From the IMG/VR virus record IMGVR_UViG_3300038673_000493, positions 1-64,000 of that record: DNA of 64,000 nucleotides; one strand, given 5' to 3'. Both the position numbers and the translations under genes were made by a program. Each line of letters begins with the position of its first letter. Position 1 is the first letter of the stretch. This document shows positions 1 to 23,060 of the stretch, piece by piece. The notes beneath the pieces were generated by a model, which was not told where the DNA came from, did not search any database, and was given only the letters and a program-made list of their open reading frames with translations. The stretch is from a virus (taxonomy: Duplodnaviria > Caudoviricetes).

Positions 1-2
1 AA

Positions 3-104
3 ATGAGAAAAGCAAATTTAGGTAAAACATTATCACAAACAACCCGAGATAAAATAGGAATGGCAGTAAGAAAGGCTTGTTTAGAAAGACACAAATTCCA
101 ATAA
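3..104 (+). CDS. C-terminal end of a probable homing endonuclease (NUMOD3-like tail), truncated by the window start
   Basis: Frame reads MRKANLGKTLSQTTRDKIGMAVRKACLERHKFQ*, resembling the NUMOD3 repeat (GKxxSxETKxKI). Confidence 0.45.
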   Translation: MRKANLGKTLSQTTRDKIGMAVRKACLERHKFQ

Positions 105-150
105 TATTGGAATAAATATAATTGTGTAGGAGAAAAAGAAAGGAATAATT

Positions 151-915
151 ATGGATGATAAAAAAGAAGCAATTATTTCCAAAATCATGAAGTTGATGGA
201 ATTAGGAAACGAGGAAAAAAACACTAATCCACATGAACGGGAGGCTGCTTCAAGAATGGCTGCTAAACTGATGGCAGATTACAGCATTGATTTTATTGAC
301 CTCAAAAACAATAAAATCAAAGATGATCCATTCGTAACTATCACAATTGATGGTTCGGCAGAGCAAAGAGTTGATTATGAAGGTTCTTTAGCTCATAATA
401 TTGCCAAAGCCTTTGATTGCAAGATGATAAATCAGACGGGTTACGATCATATATGGAGATTAATCTTCGTAGGATCAAAACATGATCTTGAAATAGCGAT
501 ATACTTCTTTAAATTTCTGCGGAGAACGCTCTATGCCATGAGTTCTATGAATGTGACTAGAGAATCACTTAAACAATCTAATCCCTATCTGGGACGCAAG
601 ATTACCGCAAAGTACATTGAAGAAGCCCGTCGAAATTATTGTTTTGGTCTTGTTCAAACAATTTCTGAACGATTGGAAGAACTTTACAAGAAGAAGGAAG
701 AATTTATTCCTGCTGATTGTAGGGATTTAGTCGTTGTCAGAAAAGATGATTTGGATAGATTCCTTAAGAGTCAATTTCCTAATCTCCGTAATCTGAAAGC
801 AACATCCTTGAAAGGGGATGTTGGAGCCTACAAGAAAGGTCTTGAAGATGGCAAAAATGTCAATCTGTCCAGACCGATTTCAAACACCGGAACATCTGCG
901 GCACAAATAGCATGA
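151..915 (+). CDS. DUF2786-domain protein
   Basis: N-terminus IISKIMKLMELG...HEREAASRMAAKLMADYSID matches the DUF2786 pattern; SD AAAGGA upstream. Confidence 0.75.
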   Translation: MDDKKEAIISKIMKLMELGNEEKNTNPHEREAASRMAAKLMADYSIDFIDLKNNKIKDDPFVTITIDGSAEQRVDYEGSLAHNIAKAFDCKMINQTGYDHIWRLIFVGSKHDLEIAIYFFKFLRRTLYAMSSMNVTRESLKQSNPYLGRKITAKYIEEARRNYCFGLVQTISERLEELYKKKEEFIPADCRDLVVVRKDDLDRFLKSQFPNLRNLKATSLKGDVGAYKKGLEDGKNVNLSRPISNTGTSAAQIA

Positions 916-916
916 T

Positions 917-983
917 GCAGAGGGGCGGAGTCAGAAATTCTTCTGACTTCGTGTAATGCACAATCTCCGTCCCAAGTCGGAGA
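917..983 (+). ncRNA. Twister ribozyme 1 (P5-type permutation); predicted cleavage U954/A955
   Basis: GCA-GAGGG-[P1 GCGGAGUCAGAA/UUCUGACUUCGU]-G-UAA-UGC-AC-AA-[P4 UCUCCG-UCCCAAGU-CGGAGA]; T1 GGG/CCC, T2 AC/GU. Confidence 0.88.
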
Positions 984-1010
984 AATAAAGAGAAAAGGAG
1001 AAAGAGAGAT

Positions 1011-1433
1011 ATGACAGACCTTACAAAAAAGGAAATATTGATGAATTTGAAAAGAATGCAATTCACCAGTCGGGAAATTGAAACGGCTTTAGAAAAATCT
1101 ATCGAGCATTGGAAAAAAGATATTCTAAACAGGTTGGAAAAAGATAAAATTGATCTCATGCAAAAGGATGATTCTCAATCTCTTTGTTGGAAATCCAATA
1201 ATGAAAGAGTCGTATGTTTTGCATCATGTTGCCCTTTATGTCAGTTGTTTCTTATTAAAACAATTGACGGAAATTGCATGCATTGCCCCTATACTTTATT
1301 TCATGATTATACTTGCAATTCCAACAGAAGTGGTTGGAGAAAATTTGTAAAAGATCCTTGCAAAGAAACTGCCAAACAGATGGTAAAAGAGTTGAAAGAT
1401 GCTTTGAAGTTTTGGAAAAAACTTATGGCATAA
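1011..1433 (+). CDS. Hypothetical Cys-rich protein; paralog of 28213..28641
   Basis: KSIEHWKKDIL, CCPLC and CMHCPY motifs are shared with the 28213 ORF. Confidence 0.7.
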   Translation: MTDLTKKEILMNLKRMQFTSREIETALEKSIEHWKKDILNRLEKDKIDLMQKDDSQSLCWKSNNERVVCFASCCPLCQLFLIKTIDGNCMHCPYTLFHDYTCNSNRSGWRKFVKDPCKETAKQMVKELKDALKFWKKLMA

Positions 1434-1435
1434 TT

Positions 1436-1494
1436 GCAGAGGGGGCGGAGTCAGAAACTCCGCTTAATGCACAATCACCGTCCCAAGTCGGTGA
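1436..1494 (+). ncRNA. Twister ribozyme 2; predicted cleavage U1465/A1466
   Basis: GCA-GAGGG-[GGCGGAGU/ACUCCGCU]-UAA-UGC-AC-AA-[UCACCG-UCCCAAGU-CGGUGA]. Confidence 0.93.
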
Positions 1495-1520
1495 AATAAA
1501 TAGAGAAAAGGAGAGAGAAA

Positions 1521-1703
1521 ATGCGATGCAATATGAGGGATTGTTATTTCAATAATACCCGAAATGAATGCAAATACAAAGAGTGGGCAGAAATGACAAA
1601 TGAACCTTTAAAAGAAATTATGTTGGATTCTAAAGGCACTTGTGTTTTCAGAAAATCAATGATGATTATTCCGGGTAAATCTGAACATTTTGTCAAAGAA
1701 TAA
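1521..1703 (+). CDS. Hypothetical small protein
   Basis: Strong SD AAAGGAG; lies exactly between ribozymes 2 and 3. Confidence 0.65.
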   Translation: MRCNMRDCYFNNTRNECKYKEWAEMTNEPLKEIMLDSKGTCVFRKSMMIIPGKSEHFVKE

Positions 1704-1704
1704 T

Positions 1705-1763
1705 GCAGAGAGGGCGGAATCTTCGATTCCGCTTAATGCACAATTCCAGTCTCAAGTCTGGAA
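1705..1763 (+). ncRNA. Twister ribozyme 3; predicted cleavage U1734/A1735
   Basis: GCA-GAGAG-[GGCGGAAUC/GAUUCCGCU]-UAA-UGC-AC-AA-[UUCCAG-UCUCAAGU-CUGGAA]; T1 covaries to GAG/CUC. Confidence 0.93.
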
Positions 1764-1821
1764 AATTTATAGAATAGAAAGGAGGAAAAGAGAGAATGAA
1801 AAAGTATGCTTTAGGAGGTGA

Positions 1822-2091
1822 TTGGTGGCTGATTTAATCACGGATAATTCAGATAAATCGGTAAGAATGTTAACCATAGCAGATTGTGAAAGTGCCCGAA
1901 AAATTTGTGAAGAAAAACTAGGAAAATTTCTTGTTGATGAAAGTGATCAGGAATTAGCCCAAGCAAAAATTGAAGCAGAAATTGCCATTTGGGATAGAAT
2001 CATGTTCCACTTAAATAACGGAGAAATTATCACAATCAATGACCAAAAACAAATTCATTGGGTACAATCAGAAATCAAAACAAAAAACTAG
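1822..2091 (+). CDS. Hypothetical protein (possibly frameshifted from an ATG at 1796)
   Basis: ORF track; SD AGGAGG before GTG 1825; see findings. Confidence 0.6.
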   Translation: MVADLITDNSDKSVRMLTIADCESARKICEEKLGKFLVDESDQELAQAKIEAEIAIWDRIMFHLNNGEIITINDQKQIHWVQSEIKTKN

Positions 2092-2153
2092 CAGAGAGAC
2101 AGGAAGTCAGAAATGACTTCCTGGTAATGCACATCTCGGTCTCAAGTCCGAGA
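2091..2153 (+). ncRNA. Twister ribozyme 4; predicted cleavage U2125/A2126
   Basis: GCA-GAGAG-A-[CAGGAAGUCA-GAAA-UGACUUCCUG]-G-UAA-UGC-AC-A-[UCUCGG-UCUCAAGU-CCGAGA]; the first G is the G of the upstream TAG stop. Confidence 0.92.
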
Positions 2154-2170
2154 AGAAAGGAGAAAGAGAG

Positions 2171-2593
2171 ATGGAAAAGAAAGTTGCCATATCAGTTCGT
2201 TTGAGAGGGACAAAATACAGGGAACCTGGCAGAGAAATTGAAGTGATTCACCGAGTTTTGCGATTTGAATCAATCGGAAATTTCAATCCAATTTTTTGCA
2301 CTTATCAAAATGAAAAATATTTAGTGCAATCATTGGAAGGAGATATTTCAGATCCTTTTCGCAGGAAAGAATCCTATCTAAATTCTTTGTATATTGAAAT
2401 TGCCTTTGTTTTCAAAAGAATCAAAAATGAACCTTATTGTATTTGTGCGGATGAAAAAGCTCTTGAGCAATATGCTTTAGGAGGTGGTTGGATAAGTCTT
2501 ACCGACTTCGTGCAAGATACAAAAGTTTATCCGGAAGAAATCATAGGCAAATGGTTCTATGTTGTTCACTCAAGAGTATTTGTTTTGGGGTAA
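2171..2593 (+). CDS. Hypothetical protein
   Basis: SD AAAGGAG; bounded by ribozymes 4 and 5. Confidence 0.7.
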   Translation: MEKKVAISVRLRGTKYREPGREIEVIHRVLRFESIGNFNPIFCTYQNEKYLVQSLEGDISDPFRRKESYLNSLYIEIAFVFKRIKNEPYCICADEKALEQYALGGGWISLTDFVQDTKVYPEEIIGKWFYVVHSRVFVLG

Positions 2594-2594
2594 T

Positions 2595-2659
2595 GCAGAG
2601 GGGGCGGAGTCAGAAATTCTGGTTCCGTCTAATGCACAATCACCGTCCCAAGTCGGTGA
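2595..2659 (+). ncRNA. Twister ribozyme 5; predicted cleavage U2630/A2631
   Basis: GCA-GAGGG-[GGCGGAGUCAGA/UCUGGUUCCGUC]-UAA-UGC-AC-AA-[UCACCG-UCCCAAGU-CGGUGA]. Confidence 0.93.
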
Positions 2660-2687
2660 AATAAAAAAGAAAAGGAGAAAGAGAAAT

Positions 2688-2930
2688 ATGTGGGTTATCA
2701 CGAATAATTTATTGGAACAAAATTTCGTTCACATTTGTTCAAAGGATTACAAGGAAAATTTTAAATTTAAATTAACCAAAAAATTTCGATTGCTTGATGG
2801 TGATGACAATATTTATTTTGAAGGATTATCGGATAATATAAACTTTGATCCTCTTGATGATTGGGGAATGCCCTTTTATGGATGTACAACAATTGAATAT
2901 TATGAAGATGATAAATGGGTTGTTCTGTAA
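2688..2930 (+). CDS. Hypothetical protein (start corrected to ATG 2688)
   Basis: The track start at 2559 runs through ribozyme 5; SD AAAGGAG precedes ATG 2688 (MWVITNN). Confidence 0.7.
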   Translation: MWVITNNLLEQNFVHICSKDYKENFKFKLTKKFRLLDGDDNIYFEGLSDNINFDPLDDWGMPFYGCTTIEYYEDDKWVVL

Positions 2931-2933
2931 CTT

Positions 2934-2996
2934 GCAGAAGGGCAGAAGCCAGAAATGGCTTCTGTTAATGCACATGTCAGGTCCTAAGTCCTGACA
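2934..2996 (+). ncRNA. Twister ribozyme 6; predicted cleavage U2966/A2967
   Basis: GCA-GAAGG-[GCAGAAGCCA-GAAA-UGGCUUCUGU]-UAA-UGC-AC-A-[UGUCAGG-UCCUAAGU-CCUGACA]; T1 covaries to AGG/CCU. Confidence 0.93.
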
Positions 2997-3023
2997 AATA
3001 AAATTTAAAGGAGAAAGAAAGAA

Positions 3024-3929
3024 ATGGAAAACACAGAAATGAACAAAGCAGTGGTAAATGAAATGGTAGAGTTGAATCCTGTGGAAAGAGCGGAGATCAG
3101 AAATCGGTATCCTGAAACGTATTTTCCTAATCCTGTCAAAGAGCCTATTTGGTATGGCAGAAGGGAGCATACAAGGATTGTTGAAAAGAATGCCATTATT
3201 GATCAGAATCTCCGTCCAGATCAGGAAAAGCCGACAGTTTTTGGAATTTGCAGTGACCATTACAAAGTTGTCTTTTATGAGGACATTGTGAAAATGGTTG
3301 AAGGTGTTGTTGACACAATCAAAGATTTCGGGGAAATCAAGATCAATCCGTACACTTATGCTGATGGTGGAAGATTGCGTATAAATCTGTCTTTCCCGGA
3401 AAAGAAAATCAATATCGTAAAAGGGGATAACATCATCCCGAAAATTGAAATCTTTTCCTCTTATGATTTGTCAACAATGCTGAAAGGACGCTTCGGGGCA
3501 TTTCAGTTGAAATGCACAAATGGAATGGGTGTTTGGAAAACATTCAAGAAATTTGCCAAACGTCACCTGCAAAATCTTCATCTGTCAGAATTGGAAGTTT
3601 CCATCATTGAAGGCATTGAAGTATTTGCACTTCAAGCAACAATGTGGAAAGAATGGGCTACTTTGAAGATTCCCCAGAAAGTCTATGAAGAAATCTGGAC
3701 CGATCTTCCTTTCAGTCCTACAGAAAAAGAGCGGATTGAAGCACTTCCCGAAATTGGCACGAAACTGCTTCTTCCGGATGCGTTGAAATCGAATGATTTG
3801 AATGTTTGGTCATTCAATTCTGTTCTGACCCAGTTTGCAACTCATGAGGTCAAAAGTGAACTTCGCAGGATTGAACTTGAACCAATCATTGCTCGTTCAA
3901 TGGAAAAACTCTACGATAGATTACACTAA
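3024..3929 (+). CDS. DUF932/DUF945-family phage protein
   Basis: YKVVFYEDIV and SYDLS...GAFQLKCTNGM motifs typical of the family. Confidence 0.75.
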   Translation: MENTEMNKAVVNEMVELNPVERAEIRNRYPETYFPNPVKEPIWYGRREHTRIVEKNAIIDQNLRPDQEKPTVFGICSDHYKVVFYEDIVKMVEGVVDTIKDFGEIKINPYTYADGGRLRINLSFPEKKINIVKGDNIIPKIEIFSSYDLSTMLKGRFGAFQLKCTNGMGVWKTFKKFAKRHLQNLHLSELEVSIIEGIEVFALQATMWKEWATLKIPQKVYEEIWTDLPFSPTEKERIEALPEIGTKLLLPDALKSNDLNVWSFNSVLTQFATHEVKSELRRIELEPIIARSMEKLYDRLH

Positions 3930-3931
3930 TT

Positions 3932-3989
3932 GCAGAGGGGGCGGAGCATTTGCTCCGTCTAATGCACAATTCCAGTCCCAAGTCTGGAA
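3932..3989 (+). ncRNA. Twister ribozyme 7; predicted cleavage U3960/A3961
   Basis: GCA-GAGGG-[GGCGGAGCA/UGCUCCGUC]-UAA-UGC-AC-AA-[UUCCAG-UCCCAAGU-CUGGAA]. Confidence 0.93.
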
Positions 3990-4015
3990 ATAAAACTGAA
4001 AGGAGAAAGAGAGAA

Positions 4016-4423
4016 ATGGTCATGAATATTGATGTAAAAACGGGCATTCATTATGGAGTAATTCATCATGCAAAAGTAGGACAGGCGTGGTATGATGAAT
4101 CAGATGCTTTGTTTCCAAACAAAGAAAATGGTGAAGATGATGATGATTTTGAACCTATAGGATTTTACATTGACAAAGATGGTTATGAAGCGTGTCAAGG
4201 TAATGATGATTGTGATATATTCATTACAAAATCACCGTTTTATACCATTTGTAAATTATGTTCCCCGTGTGCTCCGAATGCGGGCTACATAATGGATTCA
4301 GATCCTAAAGGATACAAAACGTATTGCTTTGGCCATGATTGGTTTGAAACAAATCAAGCACCTTATCCTGTTTATGATGTAAAAACGGGATTTCTTGTTC
4401 CGATCTTGGCAAAAGAAGATTAA
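4016..4423 (+). CDS. Hypothetical protein (CKLCSPCAP motif; start corrected to 4016)
   Basis: SD AAAGGAG before ATG 4016; the track start at 3950 lies inside ribozyme 7. Confidence 0.7.
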   Translation: MVMNIDVKTGIHYGVIHHAKVGQAWYDESDALFPNKENGEDDDDFEPIGFYIDKDGYEACQGNDDCDIFITKSPFYTICKLCSPCAPNAGYIMDSDPKGYKTYCFGHDWFETNQAPYPVYDVKTGFLVPILAKED

Positions 4424-4430
4424 CATTCTT

Positions 4431-4488
4431 GCAGAGGGCTCCATCAGAAATGATGGAGTAATGCACAGTCTCGGTCCCAAGTCCGAGA
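4431..4488 (+). ncRNA. Twister ribozyme 8; predicted cleavage U4459/A4460
   Basis: GCA-GAGGG-[CUCCAUCA-GAAA-UGAUGGAG]-UAA-UGC-AC-AG-[UCUCGG-UCCCAAGU-CCGAGA]. Confidence 0.93.
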
Positions 4489-4515
4489 AATAAAATCGAA
4501 AGGAGAAAGAGAGAT

Positions 4516-4812
4516 ATGAAAAAGTATTTGATTACCATCTTGGTAATTTTGCTCACAATTCCTACAATGGCAAATGCTTTTATTTGCGGAAACAATTTGG
4601 CCAGTGAAGGAATGAGTAAATACCAAATTTTAAGCAACTGTGGTTCTCCTGCTTTAAAAGAACGTGTTGGTGCAGACTATTCAAATAGTTCCTACCGTAT
4701 CATTGAGAAATGGCTTTATGTCGTCAATGAATATGGAAACCAACAAATGTATCTTATTGAATTTAATGGAGACGGAATTGCTGTCAAAATCGACTACATT
4801 GGAAAAAGATAA
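4516..4812 (+). CDS. DUF2845-family exported protein
   Basis: Signal peptide, then FICGNNLASEGMSKYQILSNCGSP...IEKWLY...YLIEF pattern. Confidence 0.7.
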   Translation: MKKYLITILVILLTIPTMANAFICGNNLASEGMSKYQILSNCGSPALKERVGADYSNSSYRIIEKWLYVVNEYGNQQMYLIEFNGDGIAVKIDYIGKR

Positions 4813-4813
4813 T

Positions 4814-4871
4814 GCAGAGAGCAGGAACAGAAATGTTCCTGTAATGCACAATCCCAGTCTCAAGTCTGGGA
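4814..4871 (+). ncRNA. Twister ribozyme 9; predicted cleavage U4842/A4843
   Basis: GCA-GAGAG-[CAGGAACA-GAAA-UGUUCCUG]-UAA-UGC-AC-AA-[UCCCAG-UCUCAAGU-CUGGGA]. Confidence 0.93.
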
Positions 4872-4897
4872 AATAAAGAGAAAAGGAGAAAGAAAGA

Positions 4898-5389
4898 ATG
4901 GCGGAAGAAGAATTTACTTTTGAAGGCAGGGAAATCACAGTACAATTCAACAACAAACCTTTTGAAGTCCGTTTAGAAAAATCAAGATACAAAAATGGAC
5001 AATTAGCAGTATTTGGAGTTAATCCTGATGATGATGAAATTTTTTGTGAATTGACCATTCATATTCCAGATTTAAAAAATCCTGGTAATAAAATTTATGT
5101 TTGGGATTGTATACTTCACAAAAATTTCATTGAAGCATTAAAAAATTCAGGATGGTTTAAAACAACAAGTGTTTCTTTTTATTCTGAAACAGTAATGGGG
5201 TTCACAGAAGTTTGGGAACCTACTGTTGAAAAACAGAATGCCCGAAAACAATGCTATTCAAAATGGAAATGTCCTCTATGTAAACATATCATAGAAGGCC
5301 TAACTTTTGTTGAAATAGCAATTATAGGGACACCTATATGCAAAAATTGTGATATGCCTATGGACTTTTCTGAAGAATACATTAAGTAA
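4898..5389 (+). CDS. Hypothetical protein, DUF4313-like N-terminus with C-terminal CxxC...CxxC zinc ribbon
   Basis: YKNGQLAV...FCELTIHI; CPLC and CKNC. Confidence 0.55.
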   Translation: MAEEEFTFEGREITVQFNNKPFEVRLEKSRYKNGQLAVFGVNPDDDEIFCELTIHIPDLKNPGNKIYVWDCILHKNFIEALKNSGWFKTTSVSFYSETVMGFTEVWEPTVEKQNARKQCYSKWKCPLCKHIIEGLTFVEIAIIGTPICKNCDMPMDFSEEYIK

Positions 5390-5398
5390 GGAGAATCC

Positions 5399-5548
5399 AT
5401 GAAATCTAAAGATGAAATCCGAAAAGTCAATTGTGTTTGTTTTCTTTGTACCAGAAGAAGCAAAAAATCCTTCAACGTAACAAAACAAAGATGGTGTAAA
5501 AAGTACAAATGTCCTTGTGGTTCAACCTCTTTTAGTTGGTTTGTTTAG
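5399..5548 (+). CDS. Small Cys-rich protein (49 aa, not in the ORF track)
   Basis: SD TAAGGAG; MKSKDEIRKVNCVCFLC...CKKYKCPCGSTSFSWFV*; its TAG overlaps ribozyme 10. Confidence 0.6.
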   Translation: MKSKDEIRKVNCVCFLCTRRSKKSFNVTKQRWCKKYKCPCGSTSFSWFV

Positions 5549-5605
5549 CAGAGGGGCAGGAATGAAAGTTCCTGCTAATGCACAATCCCAGTCCCAAGTC
5601 TGGGA
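5548..5605 (+). ncRNA. Twister ribozyme 10; predicted cleavage U5576/A5577
   Basis: GCA-GAGGG-[GCAGGAAU-GAAA-GUUCCUGC]-UAA-UGC-AC-AA-[UCCCAG-UCCCAAGU-CUGGGA]. Confidence 0.93.
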
Positions 5606-5632
5606 AATAAAATGAAAGGAGAAAGGGAGATT

Positions 5633-6094
5633 ATGTCAGAAGAAATCAAAGAAGAAAGTTATATGGTGGAAAAAAGTAAAATTTTGGAGGCTGCTAAAAA
5701 ATGCGCCACAACAAAGGCGGCTTTGAAAATTTTATTCCCAGAAGCATTTAAAGGAATTTACTACAGATCGGGAGATTTATTTGCCGTTACTGATAAACAA
5801 GCTTTGAATACAAGGTTGACAATCAGTAAATATTTCAAGGATGAAGAAGGTATTCTTGAAATAGGCACAAGAGTTCATTTAGGAACAGTCCGAATTGCTG
5901 TGAATCATTGTGTGGTGCTAATTCATGATGGAGGACAATATCAATACCGACTTGTTCATTTGGCTACAGGTTATGCTTTTAATAATAAAAGTTATAAAAG
6001 AACTGATGAAGGTATTGAAATTCCGTCCGAAGATTTATCAGGATTGGTGCTTTGTTTTGAAGGACTTTCAAAACCCAAAACAACACCAGTTTAA
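5633..6094 (+). CDS. Hypothetical protein
   Basis: SD before ATG 5633; its stop abuts the hammerhead. Confidence 0.7.
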   Translation: MSEEIKEESYMVEKSKILEAAKKCATTKAALKILFPEAFKGIYYRSGDLFAVTDKQALNTRLTISKYFKDEEGILEIGTRVHLGTVRIAVNHCVVLIHDGGQYQYRLVHLATGYAFNNKSYKRTDEGIEIPSEDLSGLVLCFEGLSKPKTTPV

Positions 6095-6095
6095 A

Positions 6096-6160
6096 ATCGA
6101 AACCGGCAGAAATGCCGGTCTAAACAAGATGGCAACTTGTTTACTGAAGATGATAAGCCA
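6096..6160 (+). ncRNA. Type II hammerhead ribozyme; predicted cleavage after GUC at C6120
   Basis: AUC-GAAA-[III CCGGCA-GAAA-UGCCGG]-UC^-[I UAAACAAG-AUGGCAA-CUUGUUUA]-CUGAAGA-U-GAU-AA-GCCA. Stem II is AUC/GAU; loop I UGGC can pair with the 3' GCCA as a pseudoknot. Confidence 0.8.
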
Positions 6161-6187
6161 AAATAATTTGAAAGGAGAAAGAAAGAA

Positions 6188-6346
6188 ATGAAAGTACCAA
6201 AAGGAATGAAAGAAGTAAAAGAAAATTCGGTTTTTGGAGAATGTGAGGACAGAAAAGGTTCCGGAGAATTTGAAGAATTTGAAAAAAGGAATAATTTGAA
6301 AGATTCGGAATTTCTTTTTGCTGAAATCGCAAAAAAAAGGAACTGA
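6188..6346 (+). CDS. Small hypothetical protein (52 aa, not in the ORF track)
   Basis: SD AAAGGAG after the hammerhead; MKVPKGMKEVKENSVFGECEDRK...KKRN*. Confidence 0.55.
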   Translation: MKVPKGMKEVKENSVFGECEDRKGSGEFEEFEKRNNLKDSEFLFAEIAKKRN

Positions 6347-6521
6347 TAAAAGCCTTCGTTTTATCGGGAATTTATCAAATCCGATCAACATTATGGGGGT
6401 ATTGGAATTTTTATATTCCTTACATCCAGAAATTTTTCTATCATTCGTAGCATCTCATACCAGAGACTTAACAGAGGTTGTAAATTCAATGATGGAAAAT
6501 TCTTCAAAAGAACCACATTAA
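6318..6521 (+). CDS. Hypothetical protein (start uncertain)
   Basis: ORF track; its TAA abuts ribozyme 11. Confidence 0.45.
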   Translation: MLKSQKKGTDKSLRFIGNLSNPINIMGVLEFLYSLHPEIFLSFVASHTRDLTEVVNSMMENSSKEPH

Positions 6522-6524
6522 TTT

Positions 6525-6581
6525 GCAGAGGGCTCCGACATTAAGTCGGAGTAATGCACAATCTCGGTCCCAAGTCCGAGA
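6525..6581 (+). ncRNA. Twister ribozyme 11; predicted cleavage U6552/A6553
   Basis: GCA-GAGGG-[CUCCGAC-AUUAA-GUCGGAG]-UAA-UGC-AC-AA-[UCUCGG-UCCCAAGU-CCGAGA]. Confidence 0.93.
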
Positions 6582-6606
6582 AATAGAGAGAGAAAGGAGA
6601 GAGAAA

Positions 6607-7401
6607 ATGTATTTGCAAATCACCAATAAATGCAACATGAATTGCCGACATTGTGGTTTTTCTTGCAATCGAAAAGGAATTCACATGGAATGGGAAACTT
6701 TCATCAATGCAATTCAATTTATCCGTGATCGTGATGATGAAACAATTACTATAGGTGGTGGAGAACCTACTTTGCATCCAAGATTTTTTGACATACTAAA
6801 AATCTGTTTGGATGATTTTAATTATGTTTGGATGGCTACTAATGGCAGCCAAACAAATGCTATGATTAGATTAGCCAACATCATAGATAATTGTGATTAT
6901 GAATCATTTTCACGGGGAGATTATTGCACTTGTGAAGAAGATCCTGACGATTGTGAATGCTGGCCAGATAAAGCAATCTATCAAGATGGTAAATTAACAG
7001 TTGCTTTATCTCTTGATTATTTCCATTCCCCAATTAATGATAAAATAGTTGAATTGTGGAAAAACAGAAGCAAATGTTCCAGTTTCAATTTCCATAATAA
7101 CTATCAAATTAGGGATGTGACAATTAGTCATAGTGGCGTAGTTAAATCAGGTCGTGCAATTCGATCGGGTGTTTGGCAAGATGAATCAAATTGTATATGT
7201 CCGAATACTCATATTGCTCCTAATGGAGATGTGAAGTTATGTGGTTGCAGAAATTCTCCTATATTGGGAAATGTCAATACTTCAGTAGATGATGAATCCC
7301 TTGAATTTTTTAGGGATAATGATATTGATTGTATAAAAAACATGACTAAAAAATTAAGGAGGATATATGAAACGAAGGCATATCAAACATTATCTGATTG
7401 A
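6607..7401 (+). CDS. Radical SAM protein with C-terminal SPASM/twitch-like cysteines (start corrected to 6607)
   Basis: YLQITNKCNMNCRHC (CxxxCxxC), GGGEPTLHP, ATNG. Confidence 0.85.
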   Translation: MYLQITNKCNMNCRHCGFSCNRKGIHMEWETFINAIQFIRDRDDETITIGGGEPTLHPRFFDILKICLDDFNYVWMATNGSQTNAMIRLANIIDNCDYESFSRGDYCTCEEDPDDCECWPDKAIYQDGKLTVALSLDYFHSPINDKIVELWKNRSKCSSFNFHNNYQIRDVTISHSGVVKSGRAIRSGVWQDESNCICPNTHIAPNGDVKLCGCRNSPILGNVNTSVDDESLEFFRDNDIDCIKNMTKKLRRIYETKAYQTLSD

Positions 7402-7618
7402 ATCCCCGGTCATTAAAGGCAAAGAAGGTGATGAAGTCAAATATCCCGTTAGTTGTAACTACAATGGAGGCATTGTAATTAACGGAAAATGGTATGACGG
7501 CTTCATCGTAGGACAACCATTGTTACCAAAAGGATTAGAATTGCAAAGCATCGGAGTTGGGCTACAGCTTAATGCTACACCACCTCTAGCAACTGCCATT
7601 CTAGTCAGAAAAAAGTGA
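7367..7618 (+). CDS. Hypothetical protein
   Basis: ORF track, overlapping gene chain. Confidence 0.5.
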   Translation: MKRRHIKHYLIESPVIKGKEGDEVKYPVSCNYNGGIVINGKWYDGFIVGQPLLPKGLELQSIGVGLQLNATPPLATAILVRKK

Positions 7619-7860
7619 ACCAAATGCATATCATTCACGAATCCACAATTAGAAACGAAAGCGGAGTTATTGAGATAACAATATTTATTGTCAATAAAAA
7701 AACGGCTAAACGCTATACCTATGGATTGTCTAGTTCATGGGCAGCGGAACAGTTTCACAAATGGTATCGTAAAGGCAGAGTTTTTCATGGAAAAGCCCTG
7801 CAATTTTTAAAAAATTTTCAATTGAAAGGAGAAAGAGAGTATGGAGAAAACCCCCGATAA
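7615..7860 (+). CDS. Hypothetical protein
   Basis: ORF track, GTGA overlap with the previous ORF. Confidence 0.55.
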   Translation: MNQMHIIHESTIRNESGVIEITIFIVNKKTAKRYTYGLSSSWAAEQFHKWYRKGRVFHGKALQFLKNFQLKGEREYGENPR

Positions 7861-8164
7861 CGCCTTGAATAAATTTTGGAGACCGTCATGGCCGAAAACT
7901 GTAATTCCGAGATACAGAAAGCTTTTGTTCAGATCAAATTGGTACATCTATGATTACAAGAAATTTGATCTGGTAAAAGACATTGCAGGTAATGTAATTA
8001 CAGTTTCCGATATAAAAAACCATTTCGGACAAACAGAAGAACAAAGGAACTTTTACAAAATTTTTGAGGAGCTTGTTCGAACTGATATGGTCAATCAAAT
8101 GACTTTAATCAAGAACAGGGAAGAGGCAATAATTGCCAACCGTAAAAAAGAAGGATTTGGCTGA
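7841..8164 (+). CDS. Hypothetical protein
   Basis: SD AAAGGAG. Confidence 0.6.
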   Translation: MEKTPDNALNKFWRPSWPKTVIPRYRKLLFRSNWYIYDYKKFDLVKDIAGNVITVSDIKNHFGQTEEQRNFYKIFEELVRTDMVNQMTLIKNREEAIIANRKKEGFG

Positions 8165-11624: not shown

Positions 11625-12241
11625 TGAATACAAAAAAATGTAAAGTTTTTAATTGTGAAAATTCTTACCACGCAAAAGGGTATTGTAGAAGGCATTACCA
11701 TCAAATATTTTATTACGGTGAAATAAAAAACAGAACATGGTTTGATAAAAATAATTTCATTATTGAAAATGACATAACAAAGATAATTTTGTTTAACCAA
11801 AAACAAATCAAAGTTGGTGAAGCTTTAATAGATACAAAATATTTGAAAAAATGCCAAAATATAAAATGGAGATTGCATAAAGGATATGTTGTAGGTTTCC
11901 CCAAAATAAAATTATCAGAATTTATTTTTGGAAAGAAAAAATATGATAGTACAATTATTGATCATATAGACAGTAATCCTTTAAACAACAAACGAAACAA
12001 TCTCCAAGAAATAACTAACCAACAAAATCAAATAAAAAAGAAAATGCAAGGAAACAATACCTCTAAATATAGAGGAGTTACTTACAATAAAAATGCTAAA
12101 AAATGGCAAACCACAATAGTAAAAAATTATAAACATTATTATTTGGGATTGTTTTCTGATAAAAAAGAAGCCGCTTTAGCTTATAATAAAAAAGCCAAAG
12201 AATTATTTGGTAGGTTTGCTATATTAAATAAGGTAAATTAA
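11624..12241 (+). CDS. HNH homing endonuclease with AP2 DNA-binding domain
   Basis: DHIDSNPLNNKRNNLQ; SKYRGVTYNK...WQTTI...YLGLFSDKKEAALAYN. Confidence 0.9.
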   Translation: MNTKKCKVFNCENSYHAKGYCRRHYHQIFYYGEIKNRTWFDKNNFIIENDITKIILFNQKQIKVGEALIDTKYLKKCQNIKWRLHKGYVVGFPKIKLSEFIFGKKKYDSTIIDHIDSNPLNNKRNNLQEITNQQNQIKKKMQGNNTSKYRGVTYNKNAKKWQTTIVKNYKHYYLGLFSDKKEAALAYNKKAKELFGRFAILNKVN

Positions 12242-13146: not shown

Positions 13147-13427
13147 CAGAATTTACTCCTATACTTATTGAAGAATTTAAAAAATGGTTAGGACCAAAAG
13201 GAATCCGGTTCTTTCAATTATGTAAATTTTTGAAAGGAACGGTTTCTCCTGTTTTTGCAATCAAAACAAATGCCAAAACAATACCATATGCTATTCACTT
13301 CAATGAAGGTATGCAAATTCGTAATTGGATGCGAGGTCAATCAGAATTTAAAGAATTTACTGATCATGATTTTGATAATACATGGACAATATTAGTTGAA
13401 AAAGCAATTGAAAAGGAGAAAACATGA
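13143..13427 (+). CDS. Hypothetical protein
   Basis: ATGA coupling; HFNEGMQIRNWMR. Confidence 0.6.
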   Translation: MTEFTPILIEEFKKWLGPKGIRFFQLCKFLKGTVSPVFAIKTNAKTIPYAIHFNEGMQIRNWMRGQSEFKEFTDHDFDNTWTILVEKAIEKEKT

Positions 13428-15922: not shown

Positions 15923-15961
15923 AAAAATGCGGTAAATCAAATTGTCGTGAGGGAGAACAGC

Positions 15962-18697
15962 ATGTCTAAAGTGACAATCAAAGAGATAGATTCAACTATT
16001 GAAAATCAAATTACCACAGCAATGATTATTTCTACTAAATTTTTATCGGAAGTTTCACCTTTATTTGATAAGGATTATTTAAAAAATTCTTTTGCTAAAA
16101 TCATTTGCTTTTGGTGTTTAGATTATTACAAGCAATACAAGAAAGCTCCTGGAATACATATCAAGGATATTTTTAAAATTGAATCAGAACTTGGAATGAC
16201 TTCTGAAGATAAAGAAATCATAGGAACATTCCTGTCTAAACTGAATAAGCAATACGTGGAAGATCAGGGAATAAATTCCGATTATATTCGTGATAATGCT
16301 TTTAATTATTTCAAGCAAAGAGAATTAGAAATCAGAGTGGATAAAGCAAGCAAGCTACTCAAAGTAGGAAAAGTTGAGGAAGCGGAAGAGCAATTCACGA
16401 AATTCAAAAAAATTGCTTATCAAGTATCTGGATGGTTTAATCCTTTTGAAGCAAGTGAAGTCATGGAAGTTTTTGATGATACAGATTCAGGTATTTTTTT
16501 ATTGCCTGGAGCACTTGGTCAGGTGATGGGGCCGATAGAACGAGATTGGTTTATTGCTGTATTAGCACCGTTCAAAAAAGGAAAATGTATAGCAAAAGGT
16601 TCAATGATACTGTTACCTAATGGTTCTTTAAAACCAATAGAAAAAATTATTGAAGATAAGGATAAGTATATTTTAAGTAAAGATAATTCTGGAAAAATAG
16701 TCAAAGGAGAAATAACAGATTATTATATCAACGGATTAAAAGAAACATATCTTGTAAAAACAAGATCGGGAAGAGAGGTTTCTGTAACTTACAATCATCC
16801 TTTCTTTACTCCTAATGGATGGGTTGCTTTGAATAAAATTTCTGTGGGAGATTTTATTGCTTGCCCAAGACAATATGAGAATTTAGGAACTAGAACCTAC
16901 GAATCTTATAAATTAAAATTACTTGCTTATATGATTGCTGAAGGATGTTTTAGAGGAAATGGTAGCTATACATTTACTAATAAAAGCAAAAAAATACAAG
17001 ATGATTTTAAATCTTGCGTAGAACAAATGGGGGATTTGGCAAGTAAAGAAAATGAAATAACCACAAGAATCGTAAGTAAAAAAGGAAAAGGTTATTCTGG
17101 TGGTTCTAATTTAAGAAAATGGATAACTAAATTAGGAATGCATCAAAAATTATCTAAAGAAAAAATAATTCCTGATTTTATCTTTAAATTACAAAATAAA
17201 GATGTGGCTTTGTTTCTGTCAACATTATTTACTTGTGATGGTTCAATATACAAAGAAGGGAAAAATACTGTTGTTATAAGCTATGGTTCAGCAAGTAAAA
17301 AATTGATTAAGCAAGTTAACCATCTCTTATTGAGATTTGGTATTGTAGGAAGAATAAAACCAACTATTTATAAAGAATTTTGCTCTTGGGAAGTAGTATT
17401 GGCTGATATGATTAGCATAAATAAATTTATGTCTCAAATAGGATTTATTTATGAAAAACAAATTAAGGCAAAAAAATTACTTTCTGAAATAATTGAAAAA
17501 CGATGCCAAAAAAGCAATATTGATGCCATTCCTTATGAAGTATTAAAAACCATAATACCTGATGAACGACCTATAAAAAACGAAGCTGTTAGACAATGTT
17601 ATAAAAAGAAAGGTAAAATATGTCGTTCAAGATTGCCACAACTTATTCCGGCATATCCTCAAACTAAATCTATAATAGAAGATGATCTTTTATGGGATTC
17701 TATTGTGGAAATAATTCCTCTTGGAAAACAAGAAACATTTGATTTGACTGTTAAAGATTACCATAATTTTATTGCTGAAGATGTTTTTGTGCATAATACT
17801 TGGTTTCTACAAGAGATGGCTGTCAGAGCTATTTTTCAGAGATTGAAGGTTGTTTTCATTTCATTGGAAATGAAAAAGAAGAATATCAAAGAAAGACTGT
17901 ATAAACGAGTTACTGGATTCGGTTCTAAATCAGGAGAAGATGTTTTCTTGTATCCTGTTTTCGATTGTGAACTGAATCAAACAGGGGAATGTGAACGTCC
18001 TGAACGAACAAATCAAATCACATTAAGAACTGCTAACGGTGAAAAACCAGACTTCGATCTTGATATGGAATATAGACCTTGTTCTTATTGCAGATCAAAC
18101 ATGATCATGGATTATCGATTAGAAACATGGTACGAAACAATTGAGATTCCTCAATTTTCTTTTTCCTCAACTAAAAAACAGTTATCAGCACTTGAAAGAA
18201 TGTACGGAGACAATCTCCGAATAATCAGTTACCCCAGATTCACAGCAAGCATTTCAGATATACGGAGAGATTTGTTTATTCTTGAACAGCATGATGGATT
18301 TGTTCCTGATGTAATCATTGTTGATTATGCAGATATTCTTAAACCGAATGCATCTAAAGGGAAAAAGCTAGATGACATTGATGACATATGGAAAATGCTT
18401 GCATCAATGGCCGCAGAAAAACATTGTATTGTATTTACAGCAAGTCAAGGAACCAGAAGCTCAATTTACAAAAGTGATATGAGCCAGGACGATCTTGCAG
18501 AATGGATTGGTAAATTAGGTCATGTTGATATGTTTTTAGGATTGAATCAAACGAAAGATGAAAAACGATCTAAAATAATTCGTGTCAATGGATTAGTTCA
18601 TCGACATAAGGAAATAGATGAAAATGTATTTGCTTGTTTATTGCAACAATTGGAAGTAGGTCAATTTTGCATGGACAGTCATTTGATGAGGAGGTAA
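15962..18697 (+). CDS. dnaB: Replicative DnaB-like helicase with intein
   Basis: Walker A APFKKGK|T split by the intein; VIIVDYAD; FTASQ. Confidence 0.88.
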   Translation: MSKVTIKEIDSTIENQITTAMIISTKFLSEVSPLFDKDYLKNSFAKIICFWCLDYYKQYKKAPGIHIKDIFKIESELGMTSEDKEIIGTFLSKLNKQYVEDQGINSDYIRDNAFNYFKQRELEIRVDKASKLLKVGKVEEAEEQFTKFKKIAYQVSGWFNPFEASEVMEVFDDTDSGIFLLPGALGQVMGPIERDWFIAVLAPFKKGKCIAKGSMILLPNGSLKPIEKIIEDKDKYILSKDNSGKIVKGEITDYYINGLKETYLVKTRSGREVSVTYNHPFFTPNGWVALNKISVGDFIACPRQYENLGTRTYESYKLKLLAYMIAEGCFRGNGSYTFTNKSKKIQDDFKSCVEQMGDLASKENEITTRIVSKKGKGYSGGSNLRKWITKLGMHQKLSKEKIIPDFIFKLQNKDVALFLSTLFTCDGSIYKEGKNTVVISYGSASKKLIKQVNHLLLRFGIVGRIKPTIYKEFCSWEVVLADMISINKFMSQIGFIYEKQIKAKKLLSEIIEKRCQKSNIDAIPYEVLKTIIPDERPIKNEAVRQCYKKKGKICRSRLPQLIPAYPQTKSIIEDDLLWDSIVEIIPLGKQETFDLTVKDYHNFIAEDVFVHNTWFLQEMAVRAIFQRLKVVFISLEMKKKNIKERLYKRVTGFGSKSGEDVFLYPVFDCELNQTGECERPERTNQITLRTANGEKPDFDLDMEYRPCSYCRSNMIMDYRLETWYETIEIPQFSFSSTKKQLSALERMYGDNLRIISYPRFTASISDIRRDLFILEQHDGFVPDVIIVDYADILKPNASKGKKLDDIDDIWKMLASMAAEKHCIVFTASQGTRSSIYKSDMSQDDLAEWIGKLGHVDMFLGLNQTKDEKRSKIIRVNGLVHRHKEIDENVFACLLQQLEVGQFCMDSHLMRR
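16586..17797 (+). mobile_element. Intein (404 aa) with LAGLIDADG endonuclease, in the DnaB P-loop
   Basis: Starts CIAKGS; block B VTYNHPF; YMIAEG and LFTCDG motifs; ends FVHN before Thr. Confidence 0.93.
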
Positions 18698-20522: not shown

Positions 20523-21432
20523 AGTATGCCATAAAACATATTCCATTATAAGTCATAAACATTTAAAAAAACATGGAATGACTATTTTGGAATATAAAAA
20601 TAAATTTTTCAATGCTCCCATATCTTCCACAGAATATTCTAATAAATTATCTAAAGCACAAAAAGGTAAAAAAATGGGAGAAAATAATCCTGCTAAAAGA
20701 AAAGAGGTAAAAGAAAAAATTAAAAAATCTGTTACAAAATTATGGGATGAAGGCAAGTATAAAAATAGAATTAATGGTATGGAAGATGTTTGTGGAAAAG
20801 CCCATCCTAATTGGAAACCTAATATTCATGAACCTCTGTTTTTAACAAAGAATAAATATGTTGATTACCTTTCTCAATATGAGGATGTGTCAGTTTGTAA
20901 AAGATGTGGAAGTAAGAAAAAAATAAATATACACCATATTGATGAAGATCATAATAATTTTCTTCCTTCTAATCTTGAACCTTTATGTGTTGGTTGTCAT
21001 AGTCATTTTCATTATGAGACACAAAAACAACCCTTCATTTCTGTGGGTAAATTATTTACATTTGCAGCCGCTCATAGATTGCCTGAATATAATGGCCCTT
21101 GTGAACGTTGGCATGGTCATGAATGGTCTTTAGAAGTAGAAATAACTAAACGAATTGATGGTAAAACAGGAATGGTTATAGATTTTTCTAAATTAAAAAA
21201 GATAGTGACGGAATATGTAATTAACATATTTGATCATAACACTATTAATGATATTATTAAAAATCCTACAGCAGAAAATATTTTAATATGGATATGGGAA
21301 ACATTAATGTTTGATGCTCATTTAAAAGGAATTAGCAAAATTACTTTATGGGAAACTCCTTCAAGTCGAGCTTGTTTAAATGTAAAAGGAATGCTGTCTA
21401 TATTGTCATCAAAAATAGAAAAAGGAGAATGA
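20509..21432 (+). CDS. queD: HNH endonuclease fused to full-length QueD (6-carboxytetrahydropterin synthase)
   Basis: N-half HHIDEDHNNFLPSNLEPLCVGCH; C-half FTFAAAHRLP...HGH...GMVIDFS...DH...PTAEN...WET. Confidence 0.88.
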   Translation: MIECKVCHKTYSIISHKHLKKHGMTILEYKNKFFNAPISSTEYSNKLSKAQKGKKMGENNPAKRKEVKEKIKKSVTKLWDEGKYKNRINGMEDVCGKAHPNWKPNIHEPLFLTKNKYVDYLSQYEDVSVCKRCGSKKKINIHHIDEDHNNFLPSNLEPLCVGCHSHFHYETQKQPFISVGKLFTFAAAHRLPEYNGPCERWHGHEWSLEVEITKRIDGKTGMVIDFSKLKKIVTEYVINIFDHNTINDIIKNPTAENILIWIWETLMFDAHLKGISKITLWETPSSRACLNVKGMLSILSSKIEKGE

Positions 21433-23060
21433 TCATGTTCATTAATTCAATCTATGCAGGAATCAACGGAGAAGTTTCTTTATTAGGGCAAGGATCACTT
21501 TGTACTTTTATCAGACTTCAAGGATGTAATTTAAAATGCAAGTATTGTTTTGGAGTTATGCCAGGAAAACATAATCCTAAAATTATACTATCTGATAAAC
21601 CAAATAAAAAATTAACCGATGTAAAAATTGGAGATAAACTATTAACCTTTAATGATAAAAAAGAATTAGTAGAAACAGAAGTTACTAATTTAATTACAAG
21701 AGAGGTTGATTCTTGGTTAAGAATAAAAATAAAAAATTATGAATATTATGTAACAGAAGAACATCCATTTTTTACAACAAGTGGATTAAAACAAGCGAAA
21801 GATTTGCAGATAGGTGATGAAATTTACCATTCTGATTTTAAAGATAAATTATCTTTTAGAATGATGGGAAATAAAAATCCTATGGAAAATGAAGATGTTA
21901 AGAAAAGATCATTTGAAAATACCGATTATAAATTAATTGGTAAAAAAATAAGTTCCACCATTAAAAGAAAACAAATTGAAGGAACTTACATATCTCCTTA
22001 TGATTCTCTTTCAAAAGATACCCAAAAAGAAATAGGAGAAAAAATATCTTTATCTAAAATAGGAAATAAAAATCCTAATTGGAAAGGAGGTTCCAAAACT
22101 CCTAATTACGATAAATTAAAACAACAAATAAAAGATGGAGAAATAAAAATCTGTTCTAAATGTTTGAAAGAAAAATCTTTAGATGTTCACCACAAAAATA
22201 ATGATCATAAAAATGATGCTCCAGAAAATTTAGAAGTTTTATGCGAATCTTGTCATTACACCGAACATGAAATTGGTTATAATTTCTGGAAAAACAATAA
22301 CAGAAAAGATGGTAAACAATTAACAGCAATGAATGGATTTAAAGTTTTATCCATTAAAAAAATTAATAGAAATAACTACCCACCATCTTTAAAACCTAAA
22401 CCTTTAAAAGTTTACAATTTATCTTGTGAACCTTATAATAGTTTTCTAATTGACTATATGTGGGTTCATAATTGTGATACGAAACAAGCACAAAAAGTGG
22501 ATAAAGAGAAAACAGAATTTCTATCCGCAGATAGAATTTATACCTATCTTATTAATGGGTATGATGATAATCGAATTTTTCCAAAAAATATTACAATTAC
22601 GGGAGGGGAACCACTAACACAAGAAAGAGAAGTGATTGCATTGGCAAGAATGTTTAGAGAATATGGTGAAAATCGTTATATGATTTCTATCGAAACAAAT
22701 GGATCTTTTAGAGTACCTTATTCCGAATATGTAGATTCGTGGGTAGTCGATTGGAAATCCCCCTCAAGTGGTATGAGAGATAAAATGAAATATGCCAATT
22801 TTTTAACTATAGGCAGAAATGATTTTGTGAAGTTCACTATTAAAAATAGAGAAGATTTTATTGATGCTATGGAATGTATGGAAACTCTTTATAAAGGGCA
22901 TGAATCTCCTAAATTTGCTTTTTCTCCACAAGTTTCCAATAATCCAAATAATGATATTTCAAAAACAATTTTGATTGATTGGATGCTTGAATCAAAAATT
23001 TGTGTAGAGACAAAAGCAATCCTAAACTTACAAATTCACAAAATAATTGGAACCGCATAA
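21429..23060 (+). CDS. queE: QueE 7-carboxy-7-deazaguanine synthase (radical SAM) with intein
   Basis: INGE...FIRLQGCNLKCKY|CDT; ITGGEP; IETNG; DWKSPSS; DFVKF; QIHK. Confidence 0.9.
   Translation: MIMFINSIYAGINGEVSLLGQGSLCTFIRLQGCNLKCKYCFGVMPGKHNPKIILSDKPNKKLTDVKIGDKLLTFNDKKELVETEVTNLITREVDSWLRIKIKNYEYYVTEEHPFFTTSGLKQAKDLQIGDEIYHSDFKDKLSFRMMGNKNPMENEDVKKRSFENTDYKLIGKKISSTIKRKQIEGTYISPYDSLSKDTQKEIGEKISLSKIGNKNPNWKGGSKTPNYDKLKQQIKDGEIKICSKCLKEKSLDVHHKNNDHKNDAPENLEVLCESCHYTEHEIGYNFWKNNNRKDGKQLTAMNGFKVLSIKKINRNNYPPSLKPKPLKVYNLSCEPYNSFLIDYMWVHNCDTKQAQKVDKEKTEFLSADRIYTYLINGYDDNRIFPKNITITGGEPLTQEREVIALARMFREYGENRYMISIETNGSFRVPYSEYVDSWVVDWKSPSSGMRDKMKYANFLTIGRNDFVKFTIKNREDFIDAMECMETLYKGHESPKFAFSPQVSNNPNNDISKTILIDWMLESKICVETKAILNLQIHKIIGTA
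21546..22472 (+). mobile_element. Intein (309 aa) carrying an HNH endonuclease
   Basis: Starts CFGVM; block B VTEEHPF; HHKNNDHKNDAPENLEVLCESCH; ends WVHN before Cys. Confidence 0.92.

Follow-up and report, generated by a model that had tools for sequence, protein, structure and literature searches.

The intergenic spaces of a putative early gene block in a phage genome of the IMG/VR database (virus record IMGVR_UViG_3300038673_000493) carry an array of twister ribozymes of the P5 type, eleven of which lie in the stretch analysed here, i.e. positions 1-64000 of that record (hereafter the window, 64,000 nucleotides (nt) long). The joint best explanation of this arrangement, which we regard as likely, is that these ribozymes, each seated in an intergenic cassette, would by themselves cut one long early transcript into mono- or bicistronic mRNAs. 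The observations that carry this explanation concern the family membership of the elements, their covariation, placement, strand and spacing, the conservation of the array and the shuffling of genes in related phages; the single precursor transcript, its cleavage in vivo and all consequences downstream of it we infer.

Rfam cmscan of the 64-kilobase (kb) window returned exactly 11 matches above any gathering score, all of them to Twister-P5 (RF02684; gathering cut-off 37.6 bits). All 11 lie on the + strand, which is the coding strand, and cover model positions 1-58 in full with 39.6-58.3 bits (match positions 916, 1435, 1704, 2090, 2594, 2933, 3931, 4430, 4813, 5547 and 6524); a permissive Rfam scan revealed no further significant family within the ribozyme block. 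An earlier note on this DNA, made from its letters, had described eleven twisters in the window, with the twister core opened at the P5 position and the cleavage site at U^AA, and had proposed a covariance-model check. The check bears the description out at each of its coordinates: 11/11 exceed the cut-off of Twister-P5 on the coding strand, and both the invariant core and the covariation of helices P1 and P4 and pseudoknots T1 and T2 agree with the assignment. A parse of each copy further reproduced the details given there, namely helix P2 as GCA/UGC with invariant GA and UAA, P1 and P4 variable and always paired, T1 as GGG/CCC in seven copies, GAG/CUC in three (1705, 2091 and 4814) and AGG/CCU in one (2934), T2 as AC/GU in 11/11, the eleven predicted scissile U positions (954 to 6552) and the lack of a P5 helix, the flanks averaging 1.35 contiguous pairs.

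The first ribozyme (917..983, + strand, as are all those that follow) lies between the DUF2786/DUF7168 gene (151-915) and the gene 1011-1433; it has T1 GGG/CCC, a P1 of 12 base pairs (bp) and a predicted cut after U954, and scores 39.6 bits with RF02684 and 56.2 bits with model R1. Next come ribozymes 2 (1436..1494; T1 GGG/CCC, predicted cut after U1465, 50.2 bits in Rfam), 3 (1705..1763; T1 GAG/CUC, predicted cut after U1734, 46.7 bits) and 4 (2091..2153; T1 GAG/CUC, predicted cut after U2125, 48.4 bits), the first G of the latter being the final base of the preceding gene's TAG stop, and then ribozyme 5 (2595..2659; T1 GGG/CCC, predicted cut after U2630, 46.0 bits). Ribozyme 6 (2934..2996; T1 AGG/CCU, P4 of 7 bp, predicted cut after U2966, 48.4 bits) precedes the DUF932-like gene 3024-3929 and is followed by ribozymes 7 (3932..3989; T1 GGG/CCC, predicted cut after U3960, 55.6 bits), 8 (4431..4488; T1 GGG/CCC, predicted cut after U4459, 58.3 bits) and 9 (4814..4871; T1 GAG/CUC, predicted cut after U4842, 55.7 bits). 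Ribozyme 10 (5548..5605; T1 GGG/CCC, predicted cut after U5576, 56.3 bits) comes after the bicistronic pair 4898-5389 and 5399-5548, whose TAG stop it overlaps. The last of the array, ribozyme 11 (6525..6581; T1 GGG/CCC, predicted cut after U6552, 53.8 bits), precedes the radical-SAM gene 6607-7401.

The array extends beyond the window. The parent record (90,579 bp) is rated complete in IMG/VR and its ends overlap by 55 bp, which we read as a sign of circular assembly. Below, G000 denotes this phage genome, L001 its upstream locus, and L002 and L003 two related IMG/VR contigs. Nine more Twister-P5 copies are found at genome positions 86734-89812 (L001 8155-11233), outside the window, for a total of 20 twisters on one strand within ~10.9 kb, crossing the record ends. 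All 20 exceed the RF02684 gathering score across model positions 1-58, none is truncated, and they occupy 20 of the ~25 gene junctions of one co-oriented block. The array of eleven in the earlier note thus holds for the window, whereas the genome total is 20 and the array continues across the record ends; likewise, its rule of one ribozyme per junction is respected at 11 of the 14 junctions in the window and broken at 5389>5399, 6094>6188 and 6346>6393. The first of these exceptions is the junction of a tight bicistronic pair. Around the last, the open reading frames (ORFs) 6188-6346 and 6318-6521, which are in different frames, share a stretch with eight consecutive A (~6331-6338), and the region may be a single gene that carries a frameshift or a sequencing error.

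To align the elements, a covariance model was built from six equal-length copies, all 20 genomic copies were aligned and the two pseudoknots were added by hand; a MAFFT alignment of the 20 copies had misplaced P1 and the T1 register, and the covariance-model alignment was used instead. Standard pairs fill 99.3 % of the 438 pair cells; the corresponding shares are 77 % after shuffling of the columns and 23-45 % after sliding of the partners. Changes on both sides of a pair were observed in 16 of the 22 pairs, i.e. 8/8 counted pairs of P1, 5/6 of P4, two of the three T1 pairs and one of the two T2 pairs. P2 is invariant (GCA/UGC), and P1 ranges from 7 to 13 bp and P4 from 6 to 7 bp. T1 is GGG/CCC in 12 copies, GAG/CUC in six and AGG/CCU in two, and T2 is AC/GU in 19 and GC/GC in one (L001 9165-9227); both pseudoknots are 100 % paired, and this pairing was not fitted by the alignment, because covariance models cannot encode pseudoknots. 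The T1 variants are spread among copies with the same P4 and therefore reflect several independent events or exchanges, not one inherited event. Invariant in 20/20 copies are the scissile-site UAA, the AAG in loop L4 and the G of the dinucleotide GA, reportedly the catalytic guanine in the env22 structure. The order of elements is that of the P5 type in all copies; a P5 helix was sought between the flanks of the copies and is absent (mean 1.35 contiguous pairs), the Rfam model itself having no P5 pairs, so that such a helix may be dispensable. The pairing kept in P1, P4, T1 and T2, together with the invariant core, indicates selection on the ribozyme fold, and by every testable sequence criterion the elements are genuine type-P5 twister ribozymes, cleavage itself being predicted.

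The copies share with Rfam RF02684 (clan CL00120) P2, the GA, the T1 strand, the P1 hairpin, the UAA, the T2 strand and a P4 with a UCYYAAGY loop, as well as both pseudoknots and the opening of the strand between P4 and P2, and they score above the curated cut-off. They differ from it in T2, which is AC/GU here in 19/20 copies and GC/GC in the Rfam consensus, and in that they are without a P5 helix and each fused to a conserved spacer and ribosome-binding site. The twister class as such goes back to Roth et al. 2014, as cited in PMC6765202 and PMC10085705. In the relative L003, the copies at 11955-12009, 13323-13375, 16010-16062 and 4775-4828 have P2 GUG/CAC (three copies) or T1 CGG/CCG (one copy), which adds to the natural covariation of the fold.

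The position of the ribozymes relative to the genes is fixed within narrow limits. Across the 20 copies, the ribozyme starts -1 to 16 nt past the stop codon (median 2), four copies overlapping the stop codon, and the predicted cut lies 45-61 nt before the next ATG (median 56). Every ribozyme is followed by an A-rich spacer and a Shine-Dalgarno unit whose tract lies 17-32 nt before each ATG; an example of this 3' half of the cassette, an A-rich spacer with a strong Shine-Dalgarno tract (AAAGGAGAAAGAGAGA), was found among the direct-repeat families at 984..1010 (+ strand). The conserved unit is the whole cassette of ~100 nt, i.e. ribozyme, A-rich spacer and long purine-rich ribosome-binding tract, with 61-90 % identity between copies, and the direct-repeat families extend from the cleavage site to the start codon, with shared stretches of 31-90 nt.

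Promoters and terminators were located by consensus scans. A sigma-70-like promoter with 11/12 consensus matches lies at genome positions 85606-85634, ~600 nt before the first gene; a second, identical 11-of-12 promoter stands ahead of an inserted GIY-YIG endonuclease gene, and the scan gave no terminator-like site on the + strand between block genes. The block starts at genome position 86229, outside the window, after a non-coding divergent region of 1.5 kb, and ends with the radical-SAM gene at 6607; its window part (151..7401, + strand) was delimited from ORF maps, Pfam and the whole-genome twister map. It counts ~15 small genes in the window and ~25 as a whole, mostly without family, those with one being DUF2786/DUF7168, DUF932-like, a DUF2845/BamE-like lipoprotein and the terminal radical-SAM gene. 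Downstream of it lie tightly packed genes free of ribozymes, including helicase, primase, DnaB, DNA polymerase A and gp32-like genes. The ribozyme block is thus the first co-oriented one past the divergent promoters and stands directly before the replication genes, where an early accessory module would lie.

This anatomy, with one strong promoter, no internal terminators, sense-strand copies and a fixed distance to the start codons, is consistent with processing of a long transcript. In the mechanism that we propose, the host RNA polymerase would start at the near-consensus sigma-70 promoter ~600 nt before the first gene and make one long transcript, the second promoter belonging to the inserted GIY-YIG endonuclease gene. 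Each ribozyme would fold and cut itself after the U of UAA during synthesis, and the outcome would be ~20 mono- or bicistronic mRNAs. Their 5' ends would carry a 5'-hydroxyl (5'-OH), the P4 hairpin and a uniform leader of ~56 nt, and their 3' ends would lie 30-40 nt past the stop codon, with a stable P1 hairpin and a 2',3'-cyclic phosphate. The likely benefit would be independence: neither expression nor decay of a small gene would depend on the genes beside it, its context would be standard, and genes could be gained, lost and reshuffled in the hypervariable block without disturbed expression.

Several points weigh against self-processing. Three or four junctions have no twister, which means that cleavage is not needed at every gene. 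Ribozyme activity is predicted from the nucleotide sequence, and the precursor is deduced from matches to consensus sequences, a weak kind of evidence; internal promoters of lesser strength may exist. Deposited phages gave no DNA match and no cultured phage has a Pol A protein more than 24 % identical, so that no host can be assigned, nor can one predict what becomes of RNAs with 5'-OH and cyclic-phosphate ends. Finally, when the glmS ribozyme cuts in Bacillus subtilis, the product with the 5'-OH is reportedly degraded faster, not slower, a finding attributed to Collins and colleagues in 2007.

Four runs of assembled contigs, one of RNA and three labelled as RNA but probably of DNA, were also compared with window positions 1-8000. 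Contigs end near ribozymes (e.g. at 1761, 3935 and 4431), in DNA-like runs as well. These contigs are uninformative on RNA ends, cleavage and expression, because the DNA-like runs also stop there and the ribozymes are repeats that break assemblies.

Arrays of the same kind occur in related phages. A search with the DUF932-like protein found two related IMG/VR contigs (78 % and 58 % identity), and Twister-P5 copies flank the orthologous DUF932-like and DUF2786 genes in the relatives (11 copies in L002, 13 in L003), the shared proteins of array-bearing relatives being 57-78 % identical. A strict DNA pattern found 72 stretches in ~55 viral contigs of IMG/VR, with several arrays of 7-13 copies, and twelve of these loci gave 77 Rfam matches, all to Twister-P5. 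The array therefore characterises a phage lineage, with a single ribozyme class as its building block. That arrays mix ribozyme classes is not supported in this lineage, Rfam scans at permissive thresholds, which covered the window, 6.5 kb upstream and 14 related loci, having given Twister-P5 only; the exceptions to the single class are a hammerhead-like element in the window, described below, and one canonical type-II hammerhead pattern in L034.

The genes enclosed by the ribozymes mostly differ among G000, L002 and L003, and shared ones come in a different order, whereas the adjoining ribozyme-free block (window 7367 onward) is syntenic among the three. Such strong differences in content and order favour a second reading, in which the cassettes are mainly recombination linkers: the repeat of ~100 nt would give short homology for gene exchange, deletion and reordering, and cleavage would be secondary or would make the new order expressible. 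The direct repeats, which run up to the start codon, would suit this role, and L002 9187 and L003 8375 have identical ribozyme 5' halves beside non-orthologous genes. Contigs from other samples have joints at ribozyme borders (1495>6170, 3003>3999, 3984>1436 and 3994>1431), but these have sides of 21-53 nt at repeats and may be assembly chimeras. The single ribozyme class in the arrays of relatives is expected from copying rather than from independent recruitment. On the other hand, the exact shared stretches are short for homologous recombination, and the strict pairing of P1, P4, T1 and T2 with an invariant core bespeaks selection on the fold, not merely on sequence identity. We therefore grant a predominantly recombinational role some plausibility, at clearly less than even chances; it is compatible with self-processing and not exclusive of it.

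The two functions could also be joined. We tentatively suggest that ribozyme and ribosome-binding site form a portable expression cassette that is also the linker of the hypervariable early block, copied within one lineage and driving modular shuffling, although we would not expect this to be the likelier outcome. Any gene order would work in such a block because every gene would be cut free with the same leader, and the genes so exchanged are probably host-takeover or anti-defence genes. The comparative data support, without proving it, a second role of the cassettes, by which a hypervariable gene block would be freely rearrangeable. If true, the portable cassette would assign the self-cleaving ribozymes of bacteria and phages a definite part in evolution.

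Alternatively, the excised gene-length RNAs could be rejoined or circularised into spliced or circular mRNAs. At its 5' end, each would have the 3' half of one twister, and at its 3' end the 5' half of the next; these halves could reassemble, and the ribozyme itself or an RtcB-type ligase of the host could join the ends. The end chemistry would suit RtcB and P2 is identical in all copies, and this outcome was raised for clustered hammerheads by Perreault et al. (PMC3088659), who sought spliced or circular products and found none. Here, the phage encodes neither RtcB nor an Rnl-type RNA ligase (RNA_ligase domain), neighbouring T1 types are often incompatible (CCC of 87467 with AGG of 87744, CCC of 89338 with GAG of 89755), and the contig joints occur in DNA-like runs too, all of which makes rejoining quite improbable. 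That the copies are selfish or decaying repeats spread through intergenic spaces without a role in expression, as many similar copies in one genome and a role in expression that is only predicted might suggest, is very unlikely given that 20/20 copies lie on the sense strand and none is truncated, that every catalytic nucleotide and helix is kept through compensatory change, that the position relative to stop and start codons is fixed and that arrays persist in relatives as divergent as those described above.

The idea of ribozyme-punctuated phage transcripts has a precedent. According to Perreault et al. 2011 (PMC3088659), multiple hammerheads often flank single genes or short gene blocks in prophages, and long phage transcripts were proposed to be processed into operon- or gene-length mRNAs; polycistronic constructs of ~2 kb were cleaved in vitro, and one construct was cleaved in E. 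coli. Reviews extend this idea to twisters and call the reason still unknown (PMC6765202, PMC6155905, PMC10085705). The novelty implied by the earlier note is therefore not supported as far as the concept goes, since it was already put forward for hammerheads by Perreault et al. 2011 (PMC3088659). The clustered prophage hammerheads (Perreault et al. 2011, PMC3088659; PMC6155905, PMC6765202) resemble the present array in lying on one strand, in flanking individual small non-conserved phage genes and in the role proposed for them, a long transcript cut to operon- or gene-length mRNAs. They differ from it in the tandem and triple arrangements described for them (three tested constructs), compared with 20 elements in ~10.9 kb here, at four of five junctions, of one class apart from the hammerhead-like element and in a rigidly repeated cassette. 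Coding-strand ribozymes flanking single genes or short blocks of a phage are thus what we found as well (20 copies, ~25 junctions). Only the size and regularity of the array exceed the published descriptions that we found, and full-text literature searches found no paper describing a twister array of this size.

RNase III cuts the early mRNA of phage T7. The array resembles that system in that a long early transcript would yield gene-sized mRNAs with hairpins at their ends, and is unlike it in that no protein nuclease would be needed and the ends would be 5'-OH and 2',3'-cyclic phosphate instead of 5'-phosphate and 3'-OH. Ribozyme insulators of the RiboJ type belong to synthetic biology, and in T4-type phages cassettes of promoter and stem-loop mediate modular shuffling. 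As with RiboJ, a self-cleaving element would standardise the 5' leader, although here it is natural and not engineered; as with the T4-type cassettes, repeated regulatory units lie between accessory genes of a hyperplastic region, the unit here being ribozyme and ribosome-binding site and not a promoter. The type of arrangement is already known, and this array is a very large and regular case of it; it involves no new ribozyme class and no new principle. Still, with twenty intact twisters at four fifths of the junctions of one operon, this complete genome makes a very clear natural test bed; the stop and start spacing is fixed, relatives offer natural variants, and comparing them can reveal whether gene shuffling, too, is driven by the cassettes.

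The junction 6094>6188, which has no twister, contains instead a probable variant of the type-II hammerhead (6096..6160, + strand), noticed by sequence pattern and RNAfold. The element, whose core is complete, consists of GAAA, a stem III of 6 bp, GUC (predicted cut after C6120), a stem I of 8 bp and CUGAAGA. It has one extra U after A9, which its stem II of 3 bp (GAU/AUC) requires; De la Pena and Flores reportedly found in 2001 that hammerheads tolerate such a U. At 2 nt past stem II, the 3' tail can form a pseudoknot of 4 bp with loop I (UGGC/GCCA). Type-II hammerheads have such a loop-I/3'-tail pseudoknot, and their stem II may be one or two pairs (Perreault et al. 2011, PMC3088659). The element is the sole match to the hammerhead pattern in the genome, and 150 simulated genomes gave 0 matches. 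RNAfold predicts a three-way junction (z = -2.9) and prefers a slightly different register. Rfam hammerhead models (type II, RF02276) gave no match at E <= 10, in the 161-nt stretch or in the whole genome, and because of this the element is termed hammerhead-like and not a member of the family; we lean, by a small degree, towards its being a variant hammerhead. A match to freshwater-2 RNA at 6102-6190 was rejected, as it reached 24 bits against a cut-off of 49.9 and was driven by two hairpins and a ribosome-binding site.

Several further features were observed around the array. Between the strong promoter and the first gene lies an ORF-free leader of ~590 nt (L001 7062-7650, genome ~85641-86228), which shows ~70 % conservation in L002 and L005 and 92 % in L012. 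It forms three consecutive hairpins with compensatory changes and matches no Rfam family. A pyrimidine tract within it (CACUCUCUUUCUUUUCUCC) is invariant; this tract is complementary to the purine-rich ribosome-binding sites found throughout the array and could mask that of the first gene or act on the others. At L001 9228-9245, at L002 5935-5960 and in several L003 3' flanks, a short strand just 5' of the ribosome-binding site can pair with the first bases of the predicted cut mRNA, as CGCAUU/AAUGCG in the G000 copy, UGCAUU/AAUGCA in its L002 orthologue and with GUGCU in seven L003 copies; such a strand is present in only one of the 20 copies of this genome.

After the ninth upstream twister (L001 11262-12000, window 1-104) there is a mini-ORF of 6 codons, followed by the GIY-YIG endonuclease gene with NUMOD-like repeats and its own promoter. 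A contig from another sample has the same mini-ORF and promoter sequence after window position 4898 instead, and the ribozyme junction that the endonuclease cassette occupies therefore seems to vary from strain to strain. Downstream of twister 3, the standard ribosome-binding site belongs to a mini-ORF of 13 codons (window 1796-1837), inside which another such site, AGGAGG, serves the real gene 1822/1825-2091; a stretch of ~20 nt from this mini-ORF region (UAUGCUUUAGGAGGUG) recurs inside the gene 2171-2593 (2469-2491).

Elsewhere in the window, an intein that includes a LAGLIDADG domain interrupts the DnaB-like helicase, and a radical-SAM/4Fe-4S protein has an intein-like HINT insertion (window 15947-18697 and 21348-23060). 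DNA of this phage is present in bioreactor, sludge, digester and wastewater metagenomes from many studies.

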